Source: Candidatus Omnitrophota bacterium
GTDB lineage: Bacteria > Omnitrophota > Gorgyraeia > Gygaellales > Profunditerraquicolaceae
Direction of reading: 5' to 3'
NCBI GenBank assembly: GCA_018895075.1
Contig: JAHIOW010000042.1
Span: 1-52,445 of the forward strand
DNA: 52,445 bases
Positions within the stretch are counted from its first letter, which is position 1; every line of letters begins with the position of its first letter. Below, in pieces: positions 6,085 to 48,250 of the stretch. The translations under genes were made by a program, and so were the position numbers. The notes beneath the pieces were generated by a model. That model made no database searches. It saw only the letters and a list, made by a program, of their open reading frames with translations, and had not been told where the DNA came from.

Positions 6085-8478
6085 TTAGAACCCGTGCCTG
6101 ATGCTAAAATGGAATTTACCGCTGCCTCTTTCGTCCTCTCCGGGTTCCTTATTTAAAGGTATGCCGTAATCAAGCATCACCGGGCCGATAGGCGACTTAA
6201 TCCTTACGCCCAGGCCAACCCCTGATTTTAAACCGCCTGAACCAAAATCATCTAATTGAGGCCAGGCATTTCCTATATCGTAGAAGGCAGCCACTTTAAT
6301 AAAATTTAATAAAGGATAAGTATATTCTGCATTGCCAATTAACATGGATTCTCCTCCCAGCGGGTCTTCGGACACAGCATCTATAGGGCCTATCTTTCTT
6401 TCGTCATAACCCCTTACCGTGTAAGCGCCCCCCACAAAGAACCTCTCGTATATGGGTATACTGTCAGAATCACCATAGGCATCCGCAAGCCCTATGCGGG
6501 CTCTTAATTCCAGGTTAGAGCCTCTCAACATAGGAAAATAATGCGAAGCCCGGCCAAAAAACTTTAAGAAATCTTTATCTCCTGTCAATGGCCCGCCTGC
6601 GCATTCTAAAGAGCCGCTGAATATATCGCCTTTAGAGGGGTCGAATATATTATCGCGGCTGTCATAGGTAACGCCCAACTCCATACTGCTGATGTTGTTC
6701 TTGCCATATTCATTCTTTAATGCAGACGTGGCATCCTCTGTTATATTTGTAATCTCTATGCTATCGTAACGATAGATTAAATTCCCGCGTAAATATTCGG
6801 ATAATTCTTTACCCAGCCGCAAATCTCCTCCGGTTATCTCCTCGTCGTAACCATAACCTATATCCGATTCTCTTTTATGTTCTCGCTTATAGGCATCAAA
6901 GCCAAAGGATACAGGATAATCAAAAACCCAAGGTTCAGTAAAGCTCAAATCAAAACCCTGGCCCAGAGTCCCCATTGACGCCCGCAACTTCAATTCCTGG
7001 CCATCCCCGGTAAAATATGGAAAATTCTTCCAGTCAAAATTCTTCTGCTCAATCTCCACAAATCCCACAAATTCATCTACGCTTGAGTAACCGCCGCCAA
7101 AGCTAAAAGCTCCAGTCTTGGCCTCTTTTACATCTACAACCAAATCTTTTCTATCCGGTGTTTCTGTATCTTCAGTATCATAACTTATCTCCTGGAAGTA
7201 CCCTAAGTTTTGCAGCCTCTCTTTGCTACGCCTTAGTTTTTCACCGTCAAATCTCTCCCCGGGCTTTATCCTTAACTCCCTGCGTATGACTACATCTTTG
7301 GTCTTTACGTTACCCCTGATCTTAATCTTATCTACATAGGCAATTTTATTCTCTATTATTTTATAGACGATATCGATACGGCCGGTATAAGGATTTAAGG
7401 AAATAGCTTCCTGTATCTGGACAAATATATAGCCCCGGTCAAAATATAGGCCCTGCATATTGACGATATCCCTCTTTAACGCCTCCTGGCTGAAGACCCG
7501 GCCGGGAATACACTCTTTTAATTGTCTCAGGATGGTATCTCTGGTAATATCTTTATTCCCCTGTATCGTTACATTACCGACCAGATACTTCTTACCTTCC
7601 TGGACCTTGATAGTGATATATAAAAGTTGTTTCTGGCCATAACTTTTTATTTCGTAATCAACTCCAACATCCGCAAAGCCCTCCCTATGATAGAAAGACT
7701 CCAAACGCTGGATATCCTCTTTTAATACTTCTTCCTTTAAAATGCCGGCATTAAAAGTCCAGGCCCTTTTTGTTTTCATTAATCTTAATATGCGCCTGTC
7801 AGGGTAATGCATATTACCTTCTACATAAATGTTCTTAATCCTTATCCTCCTGCCTTCTATAATCTTAAAGCGTATCCCTGCCTTATCATTCTCTTTGTCA
7901 ATGTCTACCTGGTATTCTATCTTAGCCCCGCTATAACCTATCTTTTCATATAATTTTTTAAGGGTCTTGACATCTTCGGCTAAATTAGGATAATCCAAAT
8001 ATTGCGTCTCTTTTGATTTCAGGGACTCTTTAAGTTTGTCTTCTTTGATAGTCAGGCGCCTGATCCCGGAAAAAGTAATCTTATCAATTATGGGCCGTTC
8101 TACGACTGTAATAATTATCTTTAGGCCTCTTTTGTAGTCTTGGGTATCAATCTTGATATCGCTAAAGAACCCTAAAAGATAAAGCCGCCTTAAATCGTCG
8201 CTGACGATATTCTCCTGGTACAGGCTGCCTACCCTAATCTTCATCTTAGATATAACGGTGTTGCTGCTTATATGTTTATTGCCTTTTACTTCTATAGCAG
8301 TAACTAACTTAGAGGCAACTCCTTGTTCCAGCTCAGATACAAAATCTCCTGTTTCTTGGCCAGGCGCATCCTGTTGCTGGGTAGGCTGGCCTTCCTGAGA
8401 TTGACCCTGTACAATAACAGGCGATTTAGTGGCTAATAATAAAAAAAGTAACCCGCATATAAAAATTTTTCTTTTCAT
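6085..8478 (-). CDS. bamA: Outer membrane protein assembly factor BamA
   Basis: POTRA repeats (GN..TKDVVIRRE), VRGY motif, SPIGPVMLDYG, C-terminal Phe. Confidence 0.95.
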   Translation of the reverse strand: MKRKIFICGLLFLLLATKSPVIVQGQSQEGQPTQQQDAPGQETGDFVSELEQGVASKLVTAIEVKGNKHISSNTVISKMKIRVGSLYQENIVSDDLRRLYLLGFFSDIKIDTQDYKRGLKIIITVVERPIIDKITFSGIRRLTIKEDKLKESLKSKETQYLDYPNLAEDVKTLKKLYEKIGYSGAKIEYQVDIDKENDKAGIRFKIIEGRRIRIKNIYVEGNMHYPDRRILRLMKTKRAWTFNAGILKEEVLKEDIQRLESFYHREGFADVGVDYEIKSYGQKQLLYITIKVQEGKKYLVGNVTIQGNKDITRDTILRQLKECIPGRVFSQEALKRDIVNMQGLYFDRGYIFVQIQEAISLNPYTGRIDIVYKIIENKIAYVDKIKIRGNVKTKDVVIRRELRIKPGERFDGEKLRRSKERLQNLGYFQEISYDTEDTETPDRKDLVVDVKEAKTGAFSFGGGYSSVDEFVGFVEIEQKNFDWKNFPYFTGDGQELKLRASMGTLGQGFDLSFTEPWVFDYPVSFGFDAYKREHKRESDIGYGYDEEITGGDLRLGKELSEYLRGNLIYRYDSIEITNITEDATSALKNEYGKNNISSMELGVTYDSRDNIFDPSKGDIFSGSLECAGGPLTGDKDFLKFFGRASHYFPMLRGSNLELRARIGLADAYGDSDSIPIYERFFVGGAYTVRGYDERKIGPIDAVSEDPLGGESMLIGNAEYTYPLLNFIKVAAFYDIGNAWPQLDDFGSGGLKSGVGLGVRIKSPIGPVMLDYGIPLNKEPGEDERGSGKFHFSIRHGF

Positions 8479-8499
8479 TTTTTTAATAATAATTTAGCG

Positions 8500-9834
8500 C
8501 TATTCTATGCGTACCAGGTTTTCAAACCGGGTATATTCTTTAATAAAGGCTAACCTCATTGAGCCTACAGGGCCATTGCGCTGCTTGGCGATAATAACCT
8601 CTGCCGTGCCCTGGTTCTGGGGCGTAGGATTATAATATTCTTCCCTTAATATCAGGGTAACCACGTCGGCATCCTGCTCTATTGCTCCGGATTCGCGTAG
8701 ATCAGAAAGTTGCGGCCGATGATCAACGCGCGCTTCTACTGCCCGGGATAATTGACTTATCGCCACTACCGGTATACTCAATTCTCGCGCCAGCGCCTTT
8801 AAGGCGCGCGAGATCTCAGAAATCTCCTGTTGTCTGTTCTCTGTCCTGCCGGTTGTGCGCATCAACTGTAAGTAATCTAAAATAACCAATCGTATATCGT
8901 GGTGCATCTTTAGCCGGCGCGCCTTTGCCCGCAGTTCCATTAGTGAAATCGCCGGAGTGTCATCTACAAATATAGGCGCCTCGGAGAGTTTGCCCGCGGC
9001 AGCAGTAAGGCGAGGCCAATCCGAAGCCGCAAGATACCCTGTCCTTACTTTATGCGCATCAACCCGGGCGTGGGCGCAAAGCATCCTCTGCACTAATTGC
9101 TCTTTGGACATCTCCACGCTAAAAATCGCCACGGGAATTTTCTCTACTACAGCTGCGTGTTCTGCAATACATAAGGCAAAGGCGCTTTTGCCCATAGAAG
9201 GCCTTCCGGCAATAACGATTAAATCTGCAATCTGAAGCCCGGAAGTTTTATTATCAAAATCTATGAACCCCGTGGGTATGCCGGTGACGTGCGCCTTGTT
9301 CTGATAAAGCCTGTCTATTGTCTCAATACTATCTTTTATGATTTCCTTCAGGTGTATATAACTACTCTGCGGCCTTATATCGCTTACTTCAAATATTAAC
9401 TTCTCCGCGTTATCTACTACCTCGCCAATATTTCCGTCACTTTCATAACACAGAGAAACAATCTTAGTAGCGTTATTTATAAGTATCCTTAAAACACTTT
9501 TTTCTTTTACAATATTAACGTAGTGGCTTATATTAGCGGCAGTGGGAACATAATTTACTAAGGCAGTCAAGAAAGTGACTCCCCCTATCCCTTCAAGCAC
9601 TCCCTTTCTTTTTAATTCATCGGCCAGAGTAATAAGGTCAACTGCCTTGTTAGCGCTATAAAGATCTGAGATAGCTGTAAAGACCTTCCTGTGGTTATCT
9701 TTGTAAAAGAAATCTGCATTTAAGGACTCTACGGCTATGGAGATGGCTGTTTCATCCATGAGCATGGAACCTAATACCGCCATCTCAGCTTCAACATTCT
9801 GAGGGGGAATCTTCTCTAAAATGATATCTGTCAT
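8500..9834 (-). CDS. dnaB: Replicative DNA helicase (no intein)
   Basis: PPQNVEAE, GRPSMGKS, DYLQLM, SQLSR, DLRESGAIEQDAD, KQRNGP. Confidence 0.98.
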   Translation of the reverse strand: MTDIILEKIPPQNVEAEMAVLGSMLMDETAISIAVESLNADFFYKDNHRKVFTAISDLYSANKAVDLITLADELKRKGVLEGIGGVTFLTALVNYVPTAANISHYVNIVKEKSVLRILINNATKIVSLCYESDGNIGEVVDNAEKLIFEVSDIRPQSSYIHLKEIIKDSIETIDRLYQNKAHVTGIPTGFIDFDNKTSGLQIADLIVIAGRPSMGKSAFALCIAEHAAVVEKIPVAIFSVEMSKEQLVQRMLCAHARVDAHKVRTGYLAASDWPRLTAAAGKLSEAPIFVDDTPAISLMELRAKARRLKMHHDIRLVILDYLQLMRTTGRTENRQQEISEISRALKALARELSIPVVAISQLSRAVEARVDHRPQLSDLRESGAIEQDADVVTLILREEYYNPTPQNQGTAEVIIAKQRNGPVGSMRLAFIKEYTRFENLVRIE

Positions 9835-9844
9835 TTACCCTCGT

Positions 9845-10294
9845 TTATTTTTTGACGACCCAGACCTTTAGCTGCGCAGAAACCTCTGGGTGTAATTTTA
9901 TAGACACCTCGTATATGCCTAAGGACTTTATATTCTCATTCAAAATAATAACATTTTTATCGATATCAAAACTTTCTTCTTTTAAGGCAGCTGATATGTC
10001 TTGTGCTGTTATGCTTCCATACAATTTATCTTCTTGGTCTTCGTGGGTTAAAACCGGCAGGGTTAAAGATAAATTTTCTAATCTCTCTTTAAGTTTTTCG
10101 GCATCTCTCTTAGATTTCTCTAATTGTAAAGTTTTTCTTTGTTTTTCCTGTTCTAACTTTTTGAGGTTTGCGGATGTCAGAGGGACAGCCAAGCCATTGG
10201 GTATAAGAAAATTACGGGCAAAACCATCTTTTACCTTTACGATGACACCTACCTTGCCTAATCTATCTATATCTTGATTTAATATAACTTCCAT
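9845..10294 (-). CDS. rplI: 50S ribosomal protein bL9
   Basis: MEVIL..LG..G..VKVKDGFARNFLIP, KLYGSIT. Confidence 0.97.
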   Translation of the reverse strand: MEVILNQDIDRLGKVGVIVKVKDGFARNFLIPNGLAVPLTSANLKKLEQEKQRKTLQLEKSKRDAEKLKERLENLSLTLPVLTHEDQEDKLYGSITAQDISAALKEESFDIDKNVIILNENIKSLGIYEVSIKLHPEVSAQLKVWVVKK

Positions 10295-10450
10295 TTTAAA
10301 TGAGCAGACAATTTACGGAGTGAAACGACGTAAATTGTAGCTCCCTTAATATCAGATTTCACGGCGTCTGCGAATTTAATCCGCCTTCGGCGGATAAGTT
10401 CGGACATATAACTTATGTCGCTCTCCGAGCTCCATAAGTTATGTCCTCAC
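10295..10450. mobile_element. Multi-hairpin MITE-like intergenic element, copy 1
   Basis: Collinear with 52180-52338. Hairpins ACAATTTACG/CGTAAATTGT and TCCGCC/GGCGGA; ends TAAATGAG and CTCACTTA. Confidence 0.75.
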
Positions 10451-10714
10451 TTATATAGCGCGGGCGTAAGGTATAAGCGAAAGAAAGCGGGCGCGTTTAA
10501 TCGCCTCCATCAGCCCTCTCTGATGTTTAGTGCAATTACCTGAAATACGCCTGGAGAGGATCTTTCCTCTTTCTCTGACAAACCCTTCCATTATTTTTAT
10601 ATCTTTATAATCTATGGTTTTAACTTTATTTACACAGAAGCGGCAAAATTTTTTCCTTGTAGATAAAAATGCGTTTCGTTTCTTCTTAACGGGTATCTTT
10701 CTCTTAACTCTCAT
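10451..10714 (-). CDS. rpsR: 30S ribosomal protein bS18
   Basis: [39 protein letters not shown]. Confidence 0.97.
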
Positions 10715-11151
10715 TGTATTGCGCCCTCGCTTTCTTCTAACCAGGATGTCTCTGTAGATGGTTCTTTTGAGGCTTCCTGGGACGGGGAATCCGCAAATGA
10801 CGGCTCTGCTTTTTTAGGCGCCGCCCCTAGAAACTGAACGCGCTCTACCCTTACCTCAATCACATTGCGTTTTTGCCCGGAATTATCCTCCCAGGAGCGC
10901 GACTGCAGCCTGCCTTCTATAAATACCGGGCTTCCTTTATGCAAATATTGATTGCAGGTTTCTGCCTGTTTATCCCAGACTACCCCGGTAACAAAACAGG
11001 TATCTTCTTTTAATTCCTGGGTTCTACTATCCTTGAACCTTCTGTTTACCGCAAGCCTGAGATTAACTACCGCGGTACCCTGCGGTGTATAGCGCAATTC
11101 CGGGTCCTTGGTCAGATTACCGATGAGTAATACCTTATTGAAATTAGCCAT
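10711..11151 (-). CDS. ssb: Single-stranded DNA-binding protein
   Basis: [27 protein letters not shown]. Confidence 0.97.
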
Positions 11152-42209: not shown

Positions 42210-43541
42210 TTAATCTGCCCCTTCAGTATCGCGTTCTATTGCTTTTACTTCCTGGTTTTTGCGCCTACGAATAATAACGCGTTTTAAAGTTACAAATTCC
42301 TCCACTAACTCTTTATTATTTATAGAATTCAGTTGTTTAAAGAGGAAATCGAACTTCTCCTCAATCTCGCCGCTAATGGCATCTCTTATATCCTGAGTGA
42401 GGCCGGTAATCTCTTTCTTAAAAGCCCCTAATGCCTTTTTGCGCGTCTTATAGATAAATTGTTCTTCGGTTTCGCCTTCTTTCTTTTCGCTTGCGCAGTT
42501 AACTTTTAACCAATCATAAATCCTGTTTTTCAAGTCCTGGGGAAAATGTTTACTTTCATAAACCATATTCTGGAATTCAGTGGCTAAGTGCACTTCGGCA
42601 GTTTCGCACTCCACAAATTTATGAAACGCCTCAGGCGGCAGGGTAGAAGCGCCGTGCTGGACTGCGCCGGACAAGCTAAACTCCTCGCGGGCAATCTTAG
42701 AGAGGCTCTTTAAGGTATCAAAATCTAATTTTACCTGGGCTACTGTGCCGTCCGGTAAAACCACGCCGCCGTGGGCAGTGCCTGTCTGGACACTTATCTT
42801 ACTGATACCTAAACGGCCCTTACGCAGCCTCTTGGAGTATCCTTGCATAAATGCGCGTAATTCCTCGGGTGTCGAGTTCTTTCCGCCTACCTCGCCAATC
42901 TCGCCCCCCACGGATACTTCTATACCGCGGGGTTGAATCTGGCGTATAAACTGTGTTAACCTGGCACAGACATCATAATTGAGATACTGCTGTTTCTTTA
43001 TATCGACTTTCTCCAAATCCACCAGAGTCGATGAGTCAATATCAATATTATAGAACCCTGACTCAATAGCCTCGCTGATTAAATTTTTTAAACCCTCTAT
43101 TTCCTTATCCGAGTTCTCTTTAAACTTTTTGGCATTGACCTGGAAATGATCACCCTGAATAAAAACCGCACCGGAAAAATTCTCTTTTATTGCCGCAGCC
43201 AAGACTGCGCTGGAATATTCTACAGGCGGCTGATCAGTATAGCCAATCTCTGACTTGGCAATTTCAAAAATGAATGCGCCAGAATTGTTTTTCTTGGCCA
43301 CCCTGAATATTGCCCGCGCCAGATCATAGGTCATGCCTCTTAAATTTATGGCCGGAACGGTAAAACCGCTCAATTTACCCTCACCCCGCGCCTGATAAAG
43401 TTGGTTCATGCTAGAAAGGTAAATCCCTTTTTTATAGGCGATATTAAGGATCTTTTTAGCCAAGTCTCTCTTAATGCTTAAATTATCGCTTAAGACTAAT
43501 TCCCGGAGAATTTTATCAATATCCAAAGGCCTCCTGCCCAT
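42210..43541 (-). CDS. Class II ketose-bisphosphate (fructose-bisphosphate) aldolase family protein
   Basis: [34 protein letters not shown]; follows pfkA. Confidence 0.85.
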
Positions 43542-43558
43542 AAAAAACAGTCTCCTTT

Positions 43559-44539
43559 CTATGTTAATATCTTAATCAAACGATAGAAATTATCTACCTT
43601 TAATTCCTTCTTGGTTACGGCAAATTCTAAATCCACCACATTAATATCATCTGAGATTACTCCTACTGCCTTGCCATTCTGGCCATTCATTAATAATTCT
43701 ACAGCCGCTGCGCCTAAGCGCGTGGCCAAGATCCTATCCCTGGCAGTAGGGATGCCACCTCTTTGTATATGGCCTAAAACCACTTCCCGTGTTTCCAATC
43801 CCGTCATCTCAGTAATTTTTTTTGCAATATCTTGGGCCTTGGCTATCTGCCCGTCCGGCAAGTGAGCACCCTCAGCTACGATAATAATCCAACTAACCTT
43901 GCCGCGAATATTGCCTTCTACTATCTCATCGCACATCCGCGGGAAATCAAATTTTTTCTCGGGCAAAAGAACTTCTTCTGCGCCACCACCCAGAGCAACC
44001 TGCAAGGCGATAAAACCATACTCTCTGCCCATTACTTCAATCACAAAAATCCTCTCCATTGAAGTAGAGGTATCTCTTATCTTGTCAATCGCCTCTAAGG
44101 CAGTATTTACTGCTGTATCGCAACCTATGGCGGAATCCGTTCCATTTAAATCATTATCGATTGTTCCGGGGATACCAATACAACTTAGATGCCATTTTTT
44201 TACCAGTTCTATACCGCCGCGGTATGTCCCATCACCGCCGATTAAAACCAGGCCGTCTATCTTATTCTTTTTTATCGCCTGGACTGCCCGGCGCTGGCCT
44301 TCTTCAGTTAAAAATTCATCGCAGCGTGCGGTTTTCAGCATCGTGCCGCCGCGATTGATAATATTAGAAACAGAACGGTGATTAAGTTCTTTCAATTCTT
44401 CGTTGATCAGGCCGGCATAACCACGAAATATACCTATCACCTCTATTTTATTATGCACAGCGTAACGCACCACGCTGCGTATAGCAGCATTCATTCCCGG
44501 CGCATCGCCGCCTGAAGTTAAAACTCCGATACGCTTCAT
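43559..44539 (-). CDS. pfkA: 6-phosphofructokinase
   Basis: TSGGDAPGMN, GGDGT, PGTIDND, EVMGR, LGHIQRGG. ATG overlaps the ahcY stop (ATGA). Confidence 0.96.
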   Translation of the reverse strand: MKRIGVLTSGGDAPGMNAAIRSVVRYAVHNKIEVIGIFRGYAGLINEELKELNHRSVSNIINRGGTMLKTARCDEFLTEEGQRRAVQAIKKNKIDGLVLIGGDGTYRGGIELVKKWHLSCIGIPGTIDNDLNGTDSAIGCDTAVNTALEAIDKIRDTSTSMERIFVIEVMGREYGFIALQVALGGGAEEVLLPEKKFDFPRMCDEIVEGNIRGKVSWIIIVAEGAHLPDGQIAKAQDIAKKITEMTGLETREVVLGHIQRGGIPTARDRILATRLGAAAVELLMNGQNGKAVGVISDDINVVDLEFAVTKKELKVDNFYRLIKILT

Positions 44540-47067
44540 GTGCCTATCTCCCAACTACAAAGATACTTTTTCTGCTCTTTAGTCAGGACATCTATCTTGA
44601 TATTCATAGATTCTAATTTCAGCCTGGCAATATCGGCATCAATTTCCTCAGGAACCTTATAAACCTCATTTCTTAATCCCTGGTGGAACTTGACAATATG
44701 CTCGACGCTTAAGGCCTGGTTGGCAAACGACATATCCATCACCTGCGCAGGATGGCCTTCTGCTGCCGCCAGATTTATGAGGCGCCCTTCGCCTAATAGG
44801 TAAATCCTGCGGCCGCCTTTTTTTAATCTATATTCATCTACAAAATCGCGAATGCGCCTTTTATTCCTGCTTAACTTCTCTAATGCCGGTATATCTATCT
44901 CTACATTAAAGTGTCCGGCATTAGCCACAATTGCGCCGTCTTTCATCGAGAGGAAATGTTCCCTGCGGATTACGCTTGCGTCGCCGGTGGTAGTCACAAA
45001 GATATCGCCGCATTTTGCCGCATCAGATATGCGCATCACCCCAAAACCATCCATAACCGCTTCTAAACCCCTGAGGGGTGAGACCTCAACCACAATAACC
45101 TGCGCACCCATCCCCTTTGCCCGCATGGCCACCCCTTTACCGCAATTATGAACTAATATACCATTTGCTACAAAACTATTAACCTTACTTACTTCTATGT
45201 CATAAATTTCTTCTTTTTCTTCTAATTTTCTTACTGACTCTAATGGAATCAATTTATAATCGTTATTAATGATTGCTCTTAATGCATCTAACAGCTTATC
45301 ATTAAGATTTGAATATTTATAATCTAAAATCCTTTTTGCTACTTCCTTCGAAATTCTTTTTTTACCATTTATATTAATCACTTTTGCATCTTCTCTACTA
45401 ACCACAACTTTGTACCTCATGTTTATCTTTCTTATAATTTCTTTGAAGTAAGGAATGCTGTCGTATTTATCAATACCTCTTGTATTTTCAAGGCCACTTA
45501 ACTCTCTTTGTTTTCTTTCCAATGAAAAACCTATTTTTTTCTTAAATATCTTTCTTGATTCTAATCCTTTTATGACCAATTCATAGCCAGATTTTGTAAC
45601 ATAAGAACAATTATCTATATTTGCAACTCGACTCCTTCTTTCTATGATGTGAGAATGTATGCCGTAATTCATTAATAGAATCTGCGTCTGTTCTATCAAC
45701 TTTTTACTGGAAGAAGATAGTCCAACAACACAGATTCTTTTACCTTTTTTCTTTCTCACCCATCCATCTGTATCAAAAAGACCCCTCAAGAAATTAGAAA
45801 CTATTTTTTCTTTAGCGGAAAAAATCGGCTCAGGTATAACTTTTTGAAAAGATTTCAGATAACCCAAGTTCAATTTAACTAATAAGTCTCTAAATTTTGT
45901 GGAATATATATCTAAATATAAGTTACTCCTGCAATCTCCTATATGAAACTTTAATTTACTTAAAGCATTTTTAAAATGTTCTTTATCTTTAGAGCTACAG
46001 GCCAGAGATACTGATCGCTTCTTTGTTACTGTCCCGTCACCAATTAAACAACCCAAAATGTAAAACAAGTCTTCGGATTTAAAACTAAAGCCGTATTTTT
46101 TAATTAAATTACTATAATCGTTTTTCCCCCATCCATTTTTATTTTTACATACAACAATATTGTCTCCCGGTATTAAATTTTCTACTTTCTTATATCTAAA
46201 GCCATCTTCCGCAAAAACTAAAACTTCGTGTTCCTTAGTTGCTCTAATACTATAACCGTCTTTTGTTTTTACCTTATAGAGCTCTTTTACTCCTTTATGA
46301 AATTTATTTACTACCTTACCATAGCCATTAAAACCTACTACCGTATCCCCAATCTCTATATCTTTTATGTCCTTAATGCCGTGGTAAGTAAATATCTTTG
46401 TATCTTTAGCAAGACACCAGCCATAACCGCAGACTACAAATTTGGAACCAGCTAATAATTTGTTAGTGGCGCGGATTATTCCATCTACGGTTGATTGTCC
46501 GGTGCCATAACGGTTATCAAATAGATGTTTGGTTTGAGCGTCATTTACCGCGATTATAGGATAACGCAACTTTCCCTGCTCTGCCAAGGCCCTTAACCTG
46601 ATTACGCCTGTAGTTGTCTCCTCGGTTCCACCGATAATATTATGGTGCATAGAAACCTGTCGCTGATGGATAGTGCTAACTAAATCTGCCCCATCATCCA
46701 TGGTAATACCAGGTTTAAATGCCAATACGGATTTAATATGTTGATAATAAGTTTTAGTATCTTCGCCTTTAATGGCGAAACAGGCAATTCTAAGCTTCTT
46801 TACCAAAGATGATGCTACATCATCCTGCGTAGATAAAGGGTTAGATGCACAAAGAGATAGATGCGCGCCGCCTGCCTTTAATACCTCCATTAAAACCCCT
46901 GTCTCGGTAGTAACGTGCAGACAGCAGGCTATCTTGATGCCTTTTAAGGGTTTCTCTTTTTTAAAACGCGTGGCAATCAAACCAAGCACAGGCATATTAT
47001 TACCTGCCCATTCAATGCGTAATGCTCCCTTCTTGGCCAGTTTTATATCTTTGATATCATAACTCAT
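44536..47067 (-). CDS. ahcY: Adenosylhomocysteinase precursor containing a 424-aa intein
   Basis: CLHVTTET, SNPLSTQD, EETTTG, KHLFDNRYGTGQS, GYGW|intein|CGKG, GHFNVEID, GRLINL..AEGHP. Exteins are 217 + 202 = 419 aa. Confidence 0.96.
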   Translation of the reverse strand: MSYDIKDIKLAKKGALRIEWAGNNMPVLGLIATRFKKEKPLKGIKIACCLHVTTETGVLMEVLKAGGAHLSLCASNPLSTQDDVASSLVKKLRIACFAIKGEDTKTYYQHIKSVLAFKPGITMDDGADLVSTIHQRQVSMHHNIIGGTEETTTGVIRLRALAEQGKLRYPIIAVNDAQTKHLFDNRYGTGQSTVDGIIRATNKLLAGSKFVVCGYGWCLAKDTKIFTYHGIKDIKDIEIGDTVVGFNGYGKVVNKFHKGVKELYKVKTKDGYSIRATKEHEVLVFAEDGFRYKKVENLIPGDNIVVCKNKNGWGKNDYSNLIKKYGFSFKSEDLFYILGCLIGDGTVTKKRSVSLACSSKDKEHFKNALSKLKFHIGDCRSNLYLDIYSTKFRDLLVKLNLGYLKSFQKVIPEPIFSAKEKIVSNFLRGLFDTDGWVRKKKGKRICVVGLSSSSKKLIEQTQILLMNYGIHSHIIERRSRVANIDNCSYVTKSGYELVIKGLESRKIFKKKIGFSLERKQRELSGLENTRGIDKYDSIPYFKEIIRKINMRYKVVVSREDAKVININGKKRISKEVAKRILDYKYSNLNDKLLDALRAIINNDYKLIPLESVRKLEEKEEIYDIEVSKVNSFVANGILVHNCGKGVAMRAKGMGAQVIVVEVSPLRGLEAVMDGFGVMRISDAAKCGDIFVTTTGDASVIRREHFLSMKDGAIVANAGHFNVEIDIPALEKLSRNKRRIRDFVDEYRLKKGGRRIYLLGEGRLINLAAAEGHPAQVMDMSFANQALSVEHIVKFHQGLRNEVYKVPEEIDADIARLKLESMNIKIDVLTKEQKKYLCSWEIGT
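45145..46416 (-). mobile_element. Intein with LAGLIDADG homing endonuclease
   Basis: Starts CLAKDT, block B ATKEH, LAGLIDADG blocks LGCLIGDG and FLRGLFDTDG, block F IYDIEV..NSFVANG, ends VHN followed by Cys+1. AT-rich relative to the exteins. Confidence 0.96.
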
Positions 47068-47080
47068 AAAGACTCCTTAT

Positions 47081-48250
47081 TTATAATCTCTTTGCCTGTT
47101 TTTTCAACTCCTGGGCCTTGTCTGTTGCCTCCCAGCTAAATTCAGGTTCTGTCCTGCCAAAATGCCCATAGCAGGCAGTCTTTCTGTATATCGGACGCAA
47201 AAGGTCCAAAGACTTAATCATCCCCTGGGGCGTCAGCTCGAAGTTCTGCCGGATAAGTTTTACGAATGCGGTTTCAGAAATCTTACCAGTGCCAAAGGTA
47301 TCTACCATTATCGCTAATGGGTCAGCCCGGCCAATAACATAAGCCATGTGTATCAGGCATTTATCTGCCAGGCCACTAGCCACAATATTCTTGGCAATAT
47401 ATCTGGCCATATAGGCTGCTGAACGGTCTACCTTGGTGGGGTCTTTACCTGAAAAAGCACCCCCGCCTGGCGCCGCAGTTCCGCCATAGGTATCCACCAC
47501 AATCTTTCTTCCGGTCATACCTGTATCAGACTGCGGGCCGCCAATGACAAACTTACCTGTTTCATTGACATAGTATTTTGTATCTTTAGTAAGGTATTCC
47601 TTTAATACTGGCTTGGCAATAATATCGATCAACTCCTGGCGCGCTTTTTTGGTAATCCTTTCTTTTGTGGAATCTAATATATCTTCAGTGTGCTGGCAGG
47701 CCAAGACACAGGAATCCACTTTTTTAGGCCGGCCATCATGATATTCTACGCTTACCTGAGATTTACAATCAGGGCCGAGATATTTTAATAGCCCCTCTCT
47801 CCTGACCTGGGCTAGGCGTCGGACTAACTTATGGGCAAGCATTATAGGTAAGGGCATAAGTTCCTCAGTCTCACGGCAGGCAAAACCTATCATAAACCCC
47901 TGATCGCCAGCGCCACCGGCATTAACACCCTGAGCGATATCAGGAGATTGGCTATGGATAGTATTGATGATAGCGCAGGTATGATAATCAAAACCGTATC
48001 TGGGATGAATGTAACCTATTTCTTTTAATAAATTGCGGGTAAGGTTATGCACATCTACATAGCCTGTGGTCGTAATCTCTCCGCCCACAATCAAAAGCCC
48101 CATGGTCACATACGTCTCACAGGCCACCCGACCATAAGGGTCCTGCCTTAAGACATCATCCAGCACCGTGTCGGAGATCTGATCGCAGACCTTATCCGGA
48201 TGGCCTTCTCCTACTGACTCTGAAGTAAAAAGGTATTTATGTGCTGACAT
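47081..48250 (-). CDS. metK: S-adenosylmethionine synthetase
   Basis: [50 protein letters not shown]. Confidence 0.98.

Follow-up and report, generated by a model that had tools for sequence, protein, structure and literature searches.

How can a bacterium with a small genome produce adenosylhomocysteinase (AhcY) from a gene whose cofactor-binding loop is interrupted by 424 additional codons, and by which route did the interruption reach this gene? The question is raised by a contig stretch of 52,445 nucleotides (JAHIOW010000042.1, here called the window) from a groundwater bacterium of the phylum Omnitrophota, whose metagenome-assembled genome (MAG; 73 contigs, 1.05 Mb, 88% complete) encodes the AhcY precursor at 44536..47067 on the minus strand (843 codons plus stop codon); no second AdoHcyase gene was found there. 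The insert is very probably a bona fide class-1 intein with an intact two-motif LAGLIDADG homing endonuclease, which has been spread horizontally in ahcY. Host and site are new, being undescribed in the literature searched, for a thoroughly known kind of element.

Anatomy of the interrupted gene

The precursor gene consists of three parts, all on the minus strand. The N-extein (46417..47067, residues 1-217) ends with ...FVVCGYGW and aligns to residues 9-225 of the solved AhcY structure 7o5l in the Protein Data Bank (PDB), while the C-extein (44536..45144, residues 642-843 plus stop) begins with Cys+1 (CGKGVAMRAK...) and aligns to residues 225-425 of 7o5l. They enclose the 424 amino acids of the intein (45145..46416, residues 218-641), which extends from Cys1 to His423-Asn424, with the junctions VVCGYGW/CLAKDTKIF and NGILVHN/CGKGVAMRA (slashes denote junctions). 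The insertion point is located between Trp217 and the Cys of the GYGW/CGKG glycine loop in the Rossmann domain of AhcY that binds nicotinamide adenine dinucleotide (NAD). Because the exteins align to 7o5l, the best solved relative (E 4e-148), without any gap, the junction is exact, and removal of the insert leaves an AhcY of 419 amino acids, which belongs to the short type of about 420. The flanks match the Pfam families AdoHcyase (4e-57) and AdoHcyase_NAD (5e-45), and the interrupted protein still lies above the cut-off of the NCBIfam ahcY equivalog model TIGR00936 (604 vs 498 bits). As the archaeal S-inosylhomocysteine hydrolase 7r3a also matches the exteins (2e-136), the substrate preference of AhcY is not proven. 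A preliminary description of the locus had reported a Cys1...His-Asn/Cys+1 intein of 424 residues with two LAGLIDADG blocks at 45145-46416, splitting the NAD-binding GYGW/CGKG motif of an otherwise restorable 419-residue frame; its coordinates, lengths and motifs are all correct, and the gap-free exteins bear out the restored frame.

Both the splicing and the endonuclease motifs can be located within the insert. Splicing block A (CLAKDTKIFTYHG, 46378..46416) contains the nucleophile Cys1, which is invariant in an alignment of three AhcY intein alleles, is also present in the allele L027, and is nearly invariant in an alignment of 26 intein sequences. Block B, which is defined by a TxxH motif, reads ATKEH (46228..46242); its T60 and H63 do not vary among the three aligned alleles and recur in L027. 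At the other end, blocks F and G (IYDIEVSKVNSFVANGILVHN, 45145..45207), which end in His-Asn, include D406, H423 and N424, nearly invariant among the 26 inteins. The endonuclease region is inserted between the Hint halves at about intein residues 100-385 (45262..46119, boundaries approximate), as delimited from the secondary structure of the model, the match to the Pfam family LAGLIDADG_3 and fold matches to I-DmoI and I-Tsp061I. Its first LAGLIDADG motif (LFYILGCLIGDGTV, 46027..46068) provides the acidic residue D127, with G126, D127 and G128 invariant in the three alleles, and its second (FLRGLFDTDGWV, 45757..45792) provides D215 and D217, invariant in the three alleles and nearly so in the 26 inteins; by analogy to PI-SceI, we take the Asp residues of LIGD127G and FDTD217G to be catalytic. 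The residues invariant across the three aligned alleles thus comprise Cys1, T60, H63, D127, D215, D217, H423 and N424.

Profile and structure searches agree with these assignments. The insert exceeds the Pfam cut-offs for LAGLIDADG_3 (PF14528; 72 vs 22.5 bits) and Intein_splicing (PF14890; 68.5 vs 35.8) and the NCBIfam cut-offs for intein_Nterm (TIGR01445; 36.7 vs 24.5) and intein_Cterm (TIGR01443; 33.8 vs 15.6). An AlphaFold2 model of the intein, computed from the 26-sequence alignment, has a mean predicted local distance difference test score (pLDDT) of 91.5 and a predicted template modelling score (pTM) of 0.92. The top Foldseek matches of this model in the PDB are full-length inteins bearing endonucleases, namely TliVMA (7qss; E 2.6e-22, TM score 0.67), 1dq3, 2cw7 and 1vde, while the free LAGLIDADG enzymes I-DmoI and I-Tsp061I match its middle part and mini-inteins match its Hint halves. 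By its motifs and predicted fold, the insert is a class-1 intein with a two-motif LAGLIDADG homing endonuclease, for which both splicing and cleavage are predicted. Autocatalytic splicing is to be expected from the intact catalytic residues, the single-copy host gene and the purifying selection described below.

Horizontal movement of the intein between ahcY alleles

Four AhcY intein alleles were found, that of the window, L027, L028 (which corresponds to protein P0002) and P0003, and all have the same insertion point and junctions, ending with ...GILVHN/C, i.e. with the C-terminal His-Asn followed by Cys+1. With the intein as query, a word-indexed search of 5.8 billion proteins returned 63 matches at E<=1e-3, three of them in AhcY: the window's own protein, P0002, whose intein is 86% identical to that of the window and whose NCBI record is named 'MAG: adenosylhomocysteinase, partial [Candidatus Omnitrophica bacterium]', and the unnamed P0003 (65%). 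The next best matches were inteins in MutS and MetK with about 30% identity. L027, from an Omnitrophota MAG and with an intein 89% identical to that of the window, was added by a scan of GTDB species genomes. The three alleles with a taxon label are thus all from Omnitrophota MAGs. The exteins of the four alleles are 62-81% identical; the inteins are 65-89% identical to each other and form a tight clade of their own.

For the three alleles available as DNA (window, L027 and L028; P0003 was excluded), synonymous differences (pS) are far less frequent in the intein, with 0.26-0.39 (synonymous distance dS 0.32-0.55), than in the exteins, with 0.60-0.86, and the neighbouring host genes metK, pfkA and fba show values of 0.64, 0.83 and 0.77, respectively. 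Because the intein is A+T-rich at third codon positions, its expectation at saturation was computed with its own codon usage. At positions with identical amino acids, intein pairs have the same codon in a fraction of 0.77-0.85, compared to 0.49 expected at saturation, whereas the exteins, with 0.37-0.53 observed and 0.40 expected, are at or near saturation. At the N junction, nucleotide identity between the window allele and L027 (windows of 20 codons) rises abruptly from 75% to 98%, and at the C junction it drops again, from 97% to 65%. The L027 extein is 89% identical to that of the intein-free allele L059 and 73% identical to that of the window, whereas the inteins of L027 and the window are 89% identical.

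Phylogenetic analysis of the exteins points in the same direction. The tree contained 32 rows, 28 intein-free alleles and the four spliced ones; L048 (a duplicate), L071 (without a match to the motif pattern), L019 (masked) and L021 (deleted) were omitted. On this tree four changes are required to explain the intein label, L027 falls together with the intein-free L052 and L059 (support 100), and a single clade of the four intein-bearing exteins is rejected by the approximately unbiased (AU) test (delta lnL 95.9, p 0.0006). In addition, the ratio of nonsynonymous to synonymous change (omega) is 0.13-0.17 over the whole intein, and the endonuclease region is no less conserved than the splicing halves (86% and 68% identity); the whole element is under purifying selection. 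The low synonymous divergence of the intein, the identity steps at its borders, the tree and the omega values together therefore indicate horizontal transfer of a maintained element, which is the signature of homing. As read from these comparisons, exactly the intein has moved between diverged ahcY alleles within a single Omnitrophota family; a further, more distant allele lies outside it. A foreign or mobile origin had been proposed earlier from G+C contrast (0.296 for the intein, compared to 0.422 for the N-extein, 0.473 for the C-extein and 0.423 for the window); the synonymous-site and tree evidence supports it strongly and goes well beyond base composition.

The alternative that survives best is a vertically inherited intein, which entered once in an ancestor, was lost many times and is now domesticated or decaying, with an endonuclease that no longer homes. 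Such a history would agree with the rarity of the AhcY intein and its confinement to a few related lineages, and P0003, whose intein and exteins differ to about the same extent from their counterparts in the window (65% and 62.5% amino acid identity), would on its own fit co-descent. We nevertheless consider it unlikely: even allowing for codon bias, vertical descent does not account for a synonymous divergence of the intein far below that of its exteins and neighbouring genes, for the sharp steps at both junctions, for the rejection of a single intein-bearing clade or for the conflicting affinities of the L027 intein and extein, and decay is at odds with an endonuclease region that is conserved to the same degree as the splicing halves.

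Several points weigh against a horizontally spread, functional homing intein and have to be set beside the evidence above. The synonymous-site comparisons include three alleles only, and the tree was calculated with a 'quick' method, leaves most inner branches unsupported and places P0003 on a long branch. With a dS of 0.32-0.55 the transfers were not very recent, and the endonuclease of the window allele may have lost its activity in the meantime. The flanks show no co-conversion tract; already the last 12 nucleotides differ between alleles. In block F the window intein has Asn (NSF) at a position occupied by His in the consensus of the 26 inteins (HSF). Finally, we infer both splicing itself and cutting of the AhcY site by the endonuclease from sequence features.

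Target site, occurrence and dependence of the host

A candidate target for a homing endonuclease is present in all intein-free alleles examined. The DNA consensus of 30 intein-free alleles at the site is TGcGG.TAtGGcTGG/TGCGG.A.gGG.Gt.gC.ATGCG; each of these alleles shares 18-22 of the central 24 nucleotides with the flanks of the window intein, and all 30 read GYGWCG[KR]G at the protein level. Related sequences were also found in metagenomes. The window stretch was detected in groundwater or subsurface metagenome runs of 14 studies, three of which are possibly the source of the assembly (none of the data sets listed for the stretch are RNA data). In four other studies, one run each contains contigs that match parts of the intein with 0 differences, and pieces about 91-92% identical point to additional intein variants. 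Contig joints at 85% likeness, which lay off the intein borders and had short sides, were not used; the loose ends of contigs were used instead. In runs X7 (one contig) and X9 (two contigs) these read, by hand translation, from ...GYGW straight into CGKG... and therefore represent empty alleles of relatives in the same habitats. The conserved empty targets, together with a spread limited precisely to the intein, indirectly support site-specific cleavage of the intein-free allele as the likely route of entry.

The life cycle suggested by these features would be as follows. The 843-residue precursor should be unable to form the dinucleotide-binding loop until the intein excises itself by an N-S acyl shift at Cys1, trans-thioesterification to Cys+1, cyclisation of Asn424 and a final S-N shift, which would yield the AhcY of 419 residues and a free endonuclease of 424 residues. 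The latter would cut intein-free ahcY genes at the strongly conserved target TGYGGNTAYGGNTGG/TGCGGNARRGG, and repair of the cut ahcY from an intein-bearing copy would install the element there.

One AhcY in the same family has a deletion close to the target. In genome G312 the sole AhcY found (L021:1045-2130) has 361 amino acids and lacks 57 residues in frame (TTTGV/CGYGWCGRG, the slash denoting the deletion); the loss takes out the conserved TKxxFDNxYG region and ends five residues ahead of the point of intein insertion. Possible explanations are an assembly error, a pseudogene and the scar of an imprecise repair at the endonuclease target.

Within the sampled genomes the AhcY intein is rare. 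Among 401 genomes of the phylum, 395 have a match to the AhcY NAD domain, and only that of the window (G000) has the AhcY intein; 78 contain some intein-like match, none of them, besides the window's, above 33% identity over the full length. Ten genomes of this sample with weak AdoHcyase_NAD scores were inspected and show contig breaks, masked bases, frameshifts or a deletion, and no intein. In the window's family, represented by one genome per genus, the AhcY C-extein was found in 58 of 61 genomes; the frame is long and intein-bearing in two (G000 and G401, the genome of L028), uninterrupted with 415-479 amino acids in 54 and cut short in the remaining two. A search with an intein-free AhcY retrieved 82 AhcY-containing proteins longer than 663 amino acids, with an intein family listed for three, the same three proteins as above; ten of the other 79 were rescanned as candidate hosts, and all proved to be terminal fusions. 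Five long proteins of about 860 amino acids (P0236, P0241, P0242, P0244 and P0247, one of them from Candidatus Gottesmanbacteria) combine an N-terminal pre-ATP-grasp/ATP-grasp part with AhcY, and other fusion partners are MetK domains, a PfkB-type kinase, an acetyltransferase and methyltransferase domains.

More distant relatives of the intein are abundant. A search of protein representatives gave 10548 matches at E<=1e-3 with best identities of 31-37%; the AhcY-intein cluster is absent from this listing, which is thus unusable for counting AhcY inteins. A scan of metagenome contigs with the intein alignment yielded at least 15 loci, which, short pieces aside, are at best 26-33% identical among the matches listed. 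Viral contigs contained one locus, 31% identical over 136 amino acids, and gave no sign of a phage carrier.

For the host, splicing would matter considerably. The gene ahcY is single-copy in the assembly, and no nucleosidase for methylthioadenosine (MTA) and S-adenosylhomocysteine (SAH), Pfs, was found in the 88%-complete assembly, since the sole PNP_UDP_1 protein is an MTA phosphorylase (TIGR01694, 322 vs 275 bits). The earlier proposal that SAH recycling would depend on splicing is thus a fair one: SAH hydrolysis probably does, as judged from the AdoHcyase and nucleosidase genes searched for.

Relation to known inteins and to the S-adenosylmethionine cycle

The solved inteins TliVMA/PhoVMA (7qss, 7qst), PI-PfuI (1dq3), PI-TkoII (2cw7) and PI-SceI (1vde) resemble the AhcY intein in having a Hint fold split by a two-motif LAGLIDADG endonuclease, in the layout Cys1...His-Asn followed by Cys, Ser or Thr at +1, and in size (Foldseek E 2.6e-22 to 1e-15, TM score 0.5-0.67). 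In contrast, their hosts are V-ATPase, ribonucleotide reductase or DNA polymerase, they share only 13-19% identity with the AhcY intein when aligned by structure, and by sequence alone the full-length solved inteins (PI-SceI, PI-PfuI) match the AhcY intein with E values of only 2e-4 to 1e-3. The best solved sequence match of the N-terminal Hint half is the gp41-1 mini-intein (6qaz; E 5e-11, residues 5-63), which also has a similar C-terminus (...ANxILxHN) but, unlike the AhcY intein, lacks an endonuclease, with a chain of 128 residues in the solved structure; gp41-1 originates from a split intein. An intein placed in a strongly conserved, glycine-rich loop for nucleotide binding, with an invariant DNA target and a host protein inactive until splicing, has likewise been described in 2016 (PMC4760082); there the loop is the Walker A loop of a replication ATPase, whereas in AhcY, a metabolic hydrolase, it is the GxGxxG loop of the NAD-binding Rossmann fold.

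The nearest relatives outside the AhcY clade are metagenomic inteins in MutS (P0004-P0006) and MetK (P0007, P0009, L008), which are 27-32% identical over 424 residues (E 1e-26 to 1e-31). They differ in host and site and, with about 30% identity, clearly in sequence, but the MetK inteins are likewise inserted in a glycine-rich nucleotide-binding motif (GGGAF/SGKD) of an enzyme of the S-adenosylmethionine (SAM) cycle. MetK hosts full-length LAGLIDADG inteins at two sites, GGGAF/C...HN/SGKDP (L008, P0007, P0009) and GL/C...HN/TGRK (P0014), and these are among the closest relatives of the AhcY intein with 27-30% identity. One such intein-bearing metK, with a full-length LAGLIDADG intein, is encoded at L008:1138-3642 on the minus strand, and in genome G386 the intein-bearing metK directly adjoins an intein-free ahcY. 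Our literature search on inteins in MetK returned no relevant paper.

It is tempting to see the SAM cycle as a recurrent, selected niche of inteins in uncultured bacteria with small genomes, with AhcY splicing acting as a redox or nutrient gate and the element being not purely selfish, but we give this idea little credence. AhcY at one site and MetK at two do carry related inteins in cofactor-binding glycine loops; if the idea held, splicing of the AhcY precursor would be a post-translational gate on SAH clearance and hence on all methylation. Still less probable is the reading that the AhcY intein is kept primarily as a conditional switch, in which redox state, metals or metabolites control splicing and, through it, SAH hydrolysis and methylation potential, while mobility is secondary. 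A switch of this kind would be well placed, as Cys1 and Cys+1 are both thiols with Cys-5 nearby, as splicing would control the pathway in a cell with a single ahcY and no Pfs found, and as related inteins occur in MetK, the other SAM-cycle enzyme. Redox-controlled inteins are known: in the Mycobacterium smegmatis DnaBi1 intein the catalytic cysteine enters a disulfide bond, and bonding partners located in exteins are reported as well (PMC6195587), so that by likeness the catalytic cysteine of the AhcY intein could in principle be disulfide-trapped as well. However, DnaBi1 is a class-3 intein with the disulfide partner inside the intein, whereas the AhcY intein belongs to class 1, and no cysteine that could pair with Cys1 or Cys+1 and whose conservation follows the intein was found in the four intein-bearing and 30 intein-free alleles. 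Of the intein-free alleles, all 30 have Cys+1 and 28 have Cys-5, and both are therefore native extein residues that were not recruited with the intein; moreover, Cys-5 is replaced by Ala in the intein-bearing P0003. Cysteines 90, 123, 140 and 162 inside the intein are conserved. Most relatives do without the intein (54 of the 58 family genera have an uninterrupted AhcY of normal length), and the intein has spread in the manner of a selfish element. The suggestion in the preliminary description that the nearby cysteines make splicing redox- or metal-sensitive thus finds no support here and is, on these alignments, weakly disfavoured. A chimera of assembly or binning, in which an intein of another gene was joined into ahcY, can practically be dismissed: the MAG does consist of 73 contigs and the insert, with a G+C content of 0.30, is unlike its flanks, but the reading frame is continuous with exact splice junctions, four independent assemblies have the same junctions with different exteins, and a contig of run X7 with 0 differences (44503-45348) bridges the C junction.

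With the horizontally spread homing intein as the preferred explanation, its novelty can be stated more precisely. No paper in the literature searched names AhcY as an intein host, and the main text of the survey by Novikova (2016; PMC4760082) contains neither 'homocystein' nor 'adenosyl', although its supplementary host tables may list AhcY. The site had been called possibly unreported; this holds for the papers searched, none of which describes it, but not for the public databases, which already contain the allele without an intein label. The public AhcY-intein sequences are annotated only as adenosylhomocysteinase, and the NCBIfam matches include no intein-containing exception model for AhcY; annotation pipelines thus label intein-bearing proteins simply as adenosylhomocysteinase. 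While the understanding of inteins is unchanged by the AhcY element, it adds a central metabolic enzyme and the glycine loop of the NAD Rossmann fold to the known insertion sites, and it provides a clear-cut case from nature of homing among bacteria not yet cultivated, with sequence-level evidence that homing is, or recently was, active among groundwater Omnitrophota. In practical terms it offers a new predicted Cys1/Cys+1 splicing domain tolerating Trp at position -1 and a predicted LAGLIDADG endonuclease with a new target, probably longer than 20 bp, that is conserved across many ahcY genes.

The surroundings of ahcY are conserved in the family. In the window (42210-48250) the gene order is metK, ahcY, pfkA and class II fructose-bisphosphate aldolase, all on the minus strand, and this order is kept in relatives (L019, and L021 up to pfkA). 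Two further inteins are found elsewhere in the window genome, on contig C50 (L079:3005-6787 and 6789-10796) in the classic hosts GyrB (residues 455-888, 434 amino acids) and GyrA (residues 111-635, 525 amino acids); with a G+C content of 0.37-0.38 they are poorer than their exteins (0.45-0.47), but less extreme than the AhcY intein (0.30). Inteins are thus known in GyrA, GyrB and AhcY of this genome, while the replicative helicase DnaB is without one: as stated in the preliminary description, dnaB is intein-free, its frame having 444 amino acids and DnaB_C positions 1-255 being unbroken (window 8518-9282, minus strand). Finally, contig C49 of the same genome (2828-3412, minus strand) encodes a free-standing protein of about 290 amino acids that shares 30% identity with the endonuclease portion of the AhcY intein (residues 108-305). 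Similar frames of 283-296 amino acids occur in about nine other genomes of the phylum, and the protein is probably WhiA-like and derived from LAGLIDADG enzymes; in the fold search, the WhiA structure 3hyi is also among the matches of the intein model.

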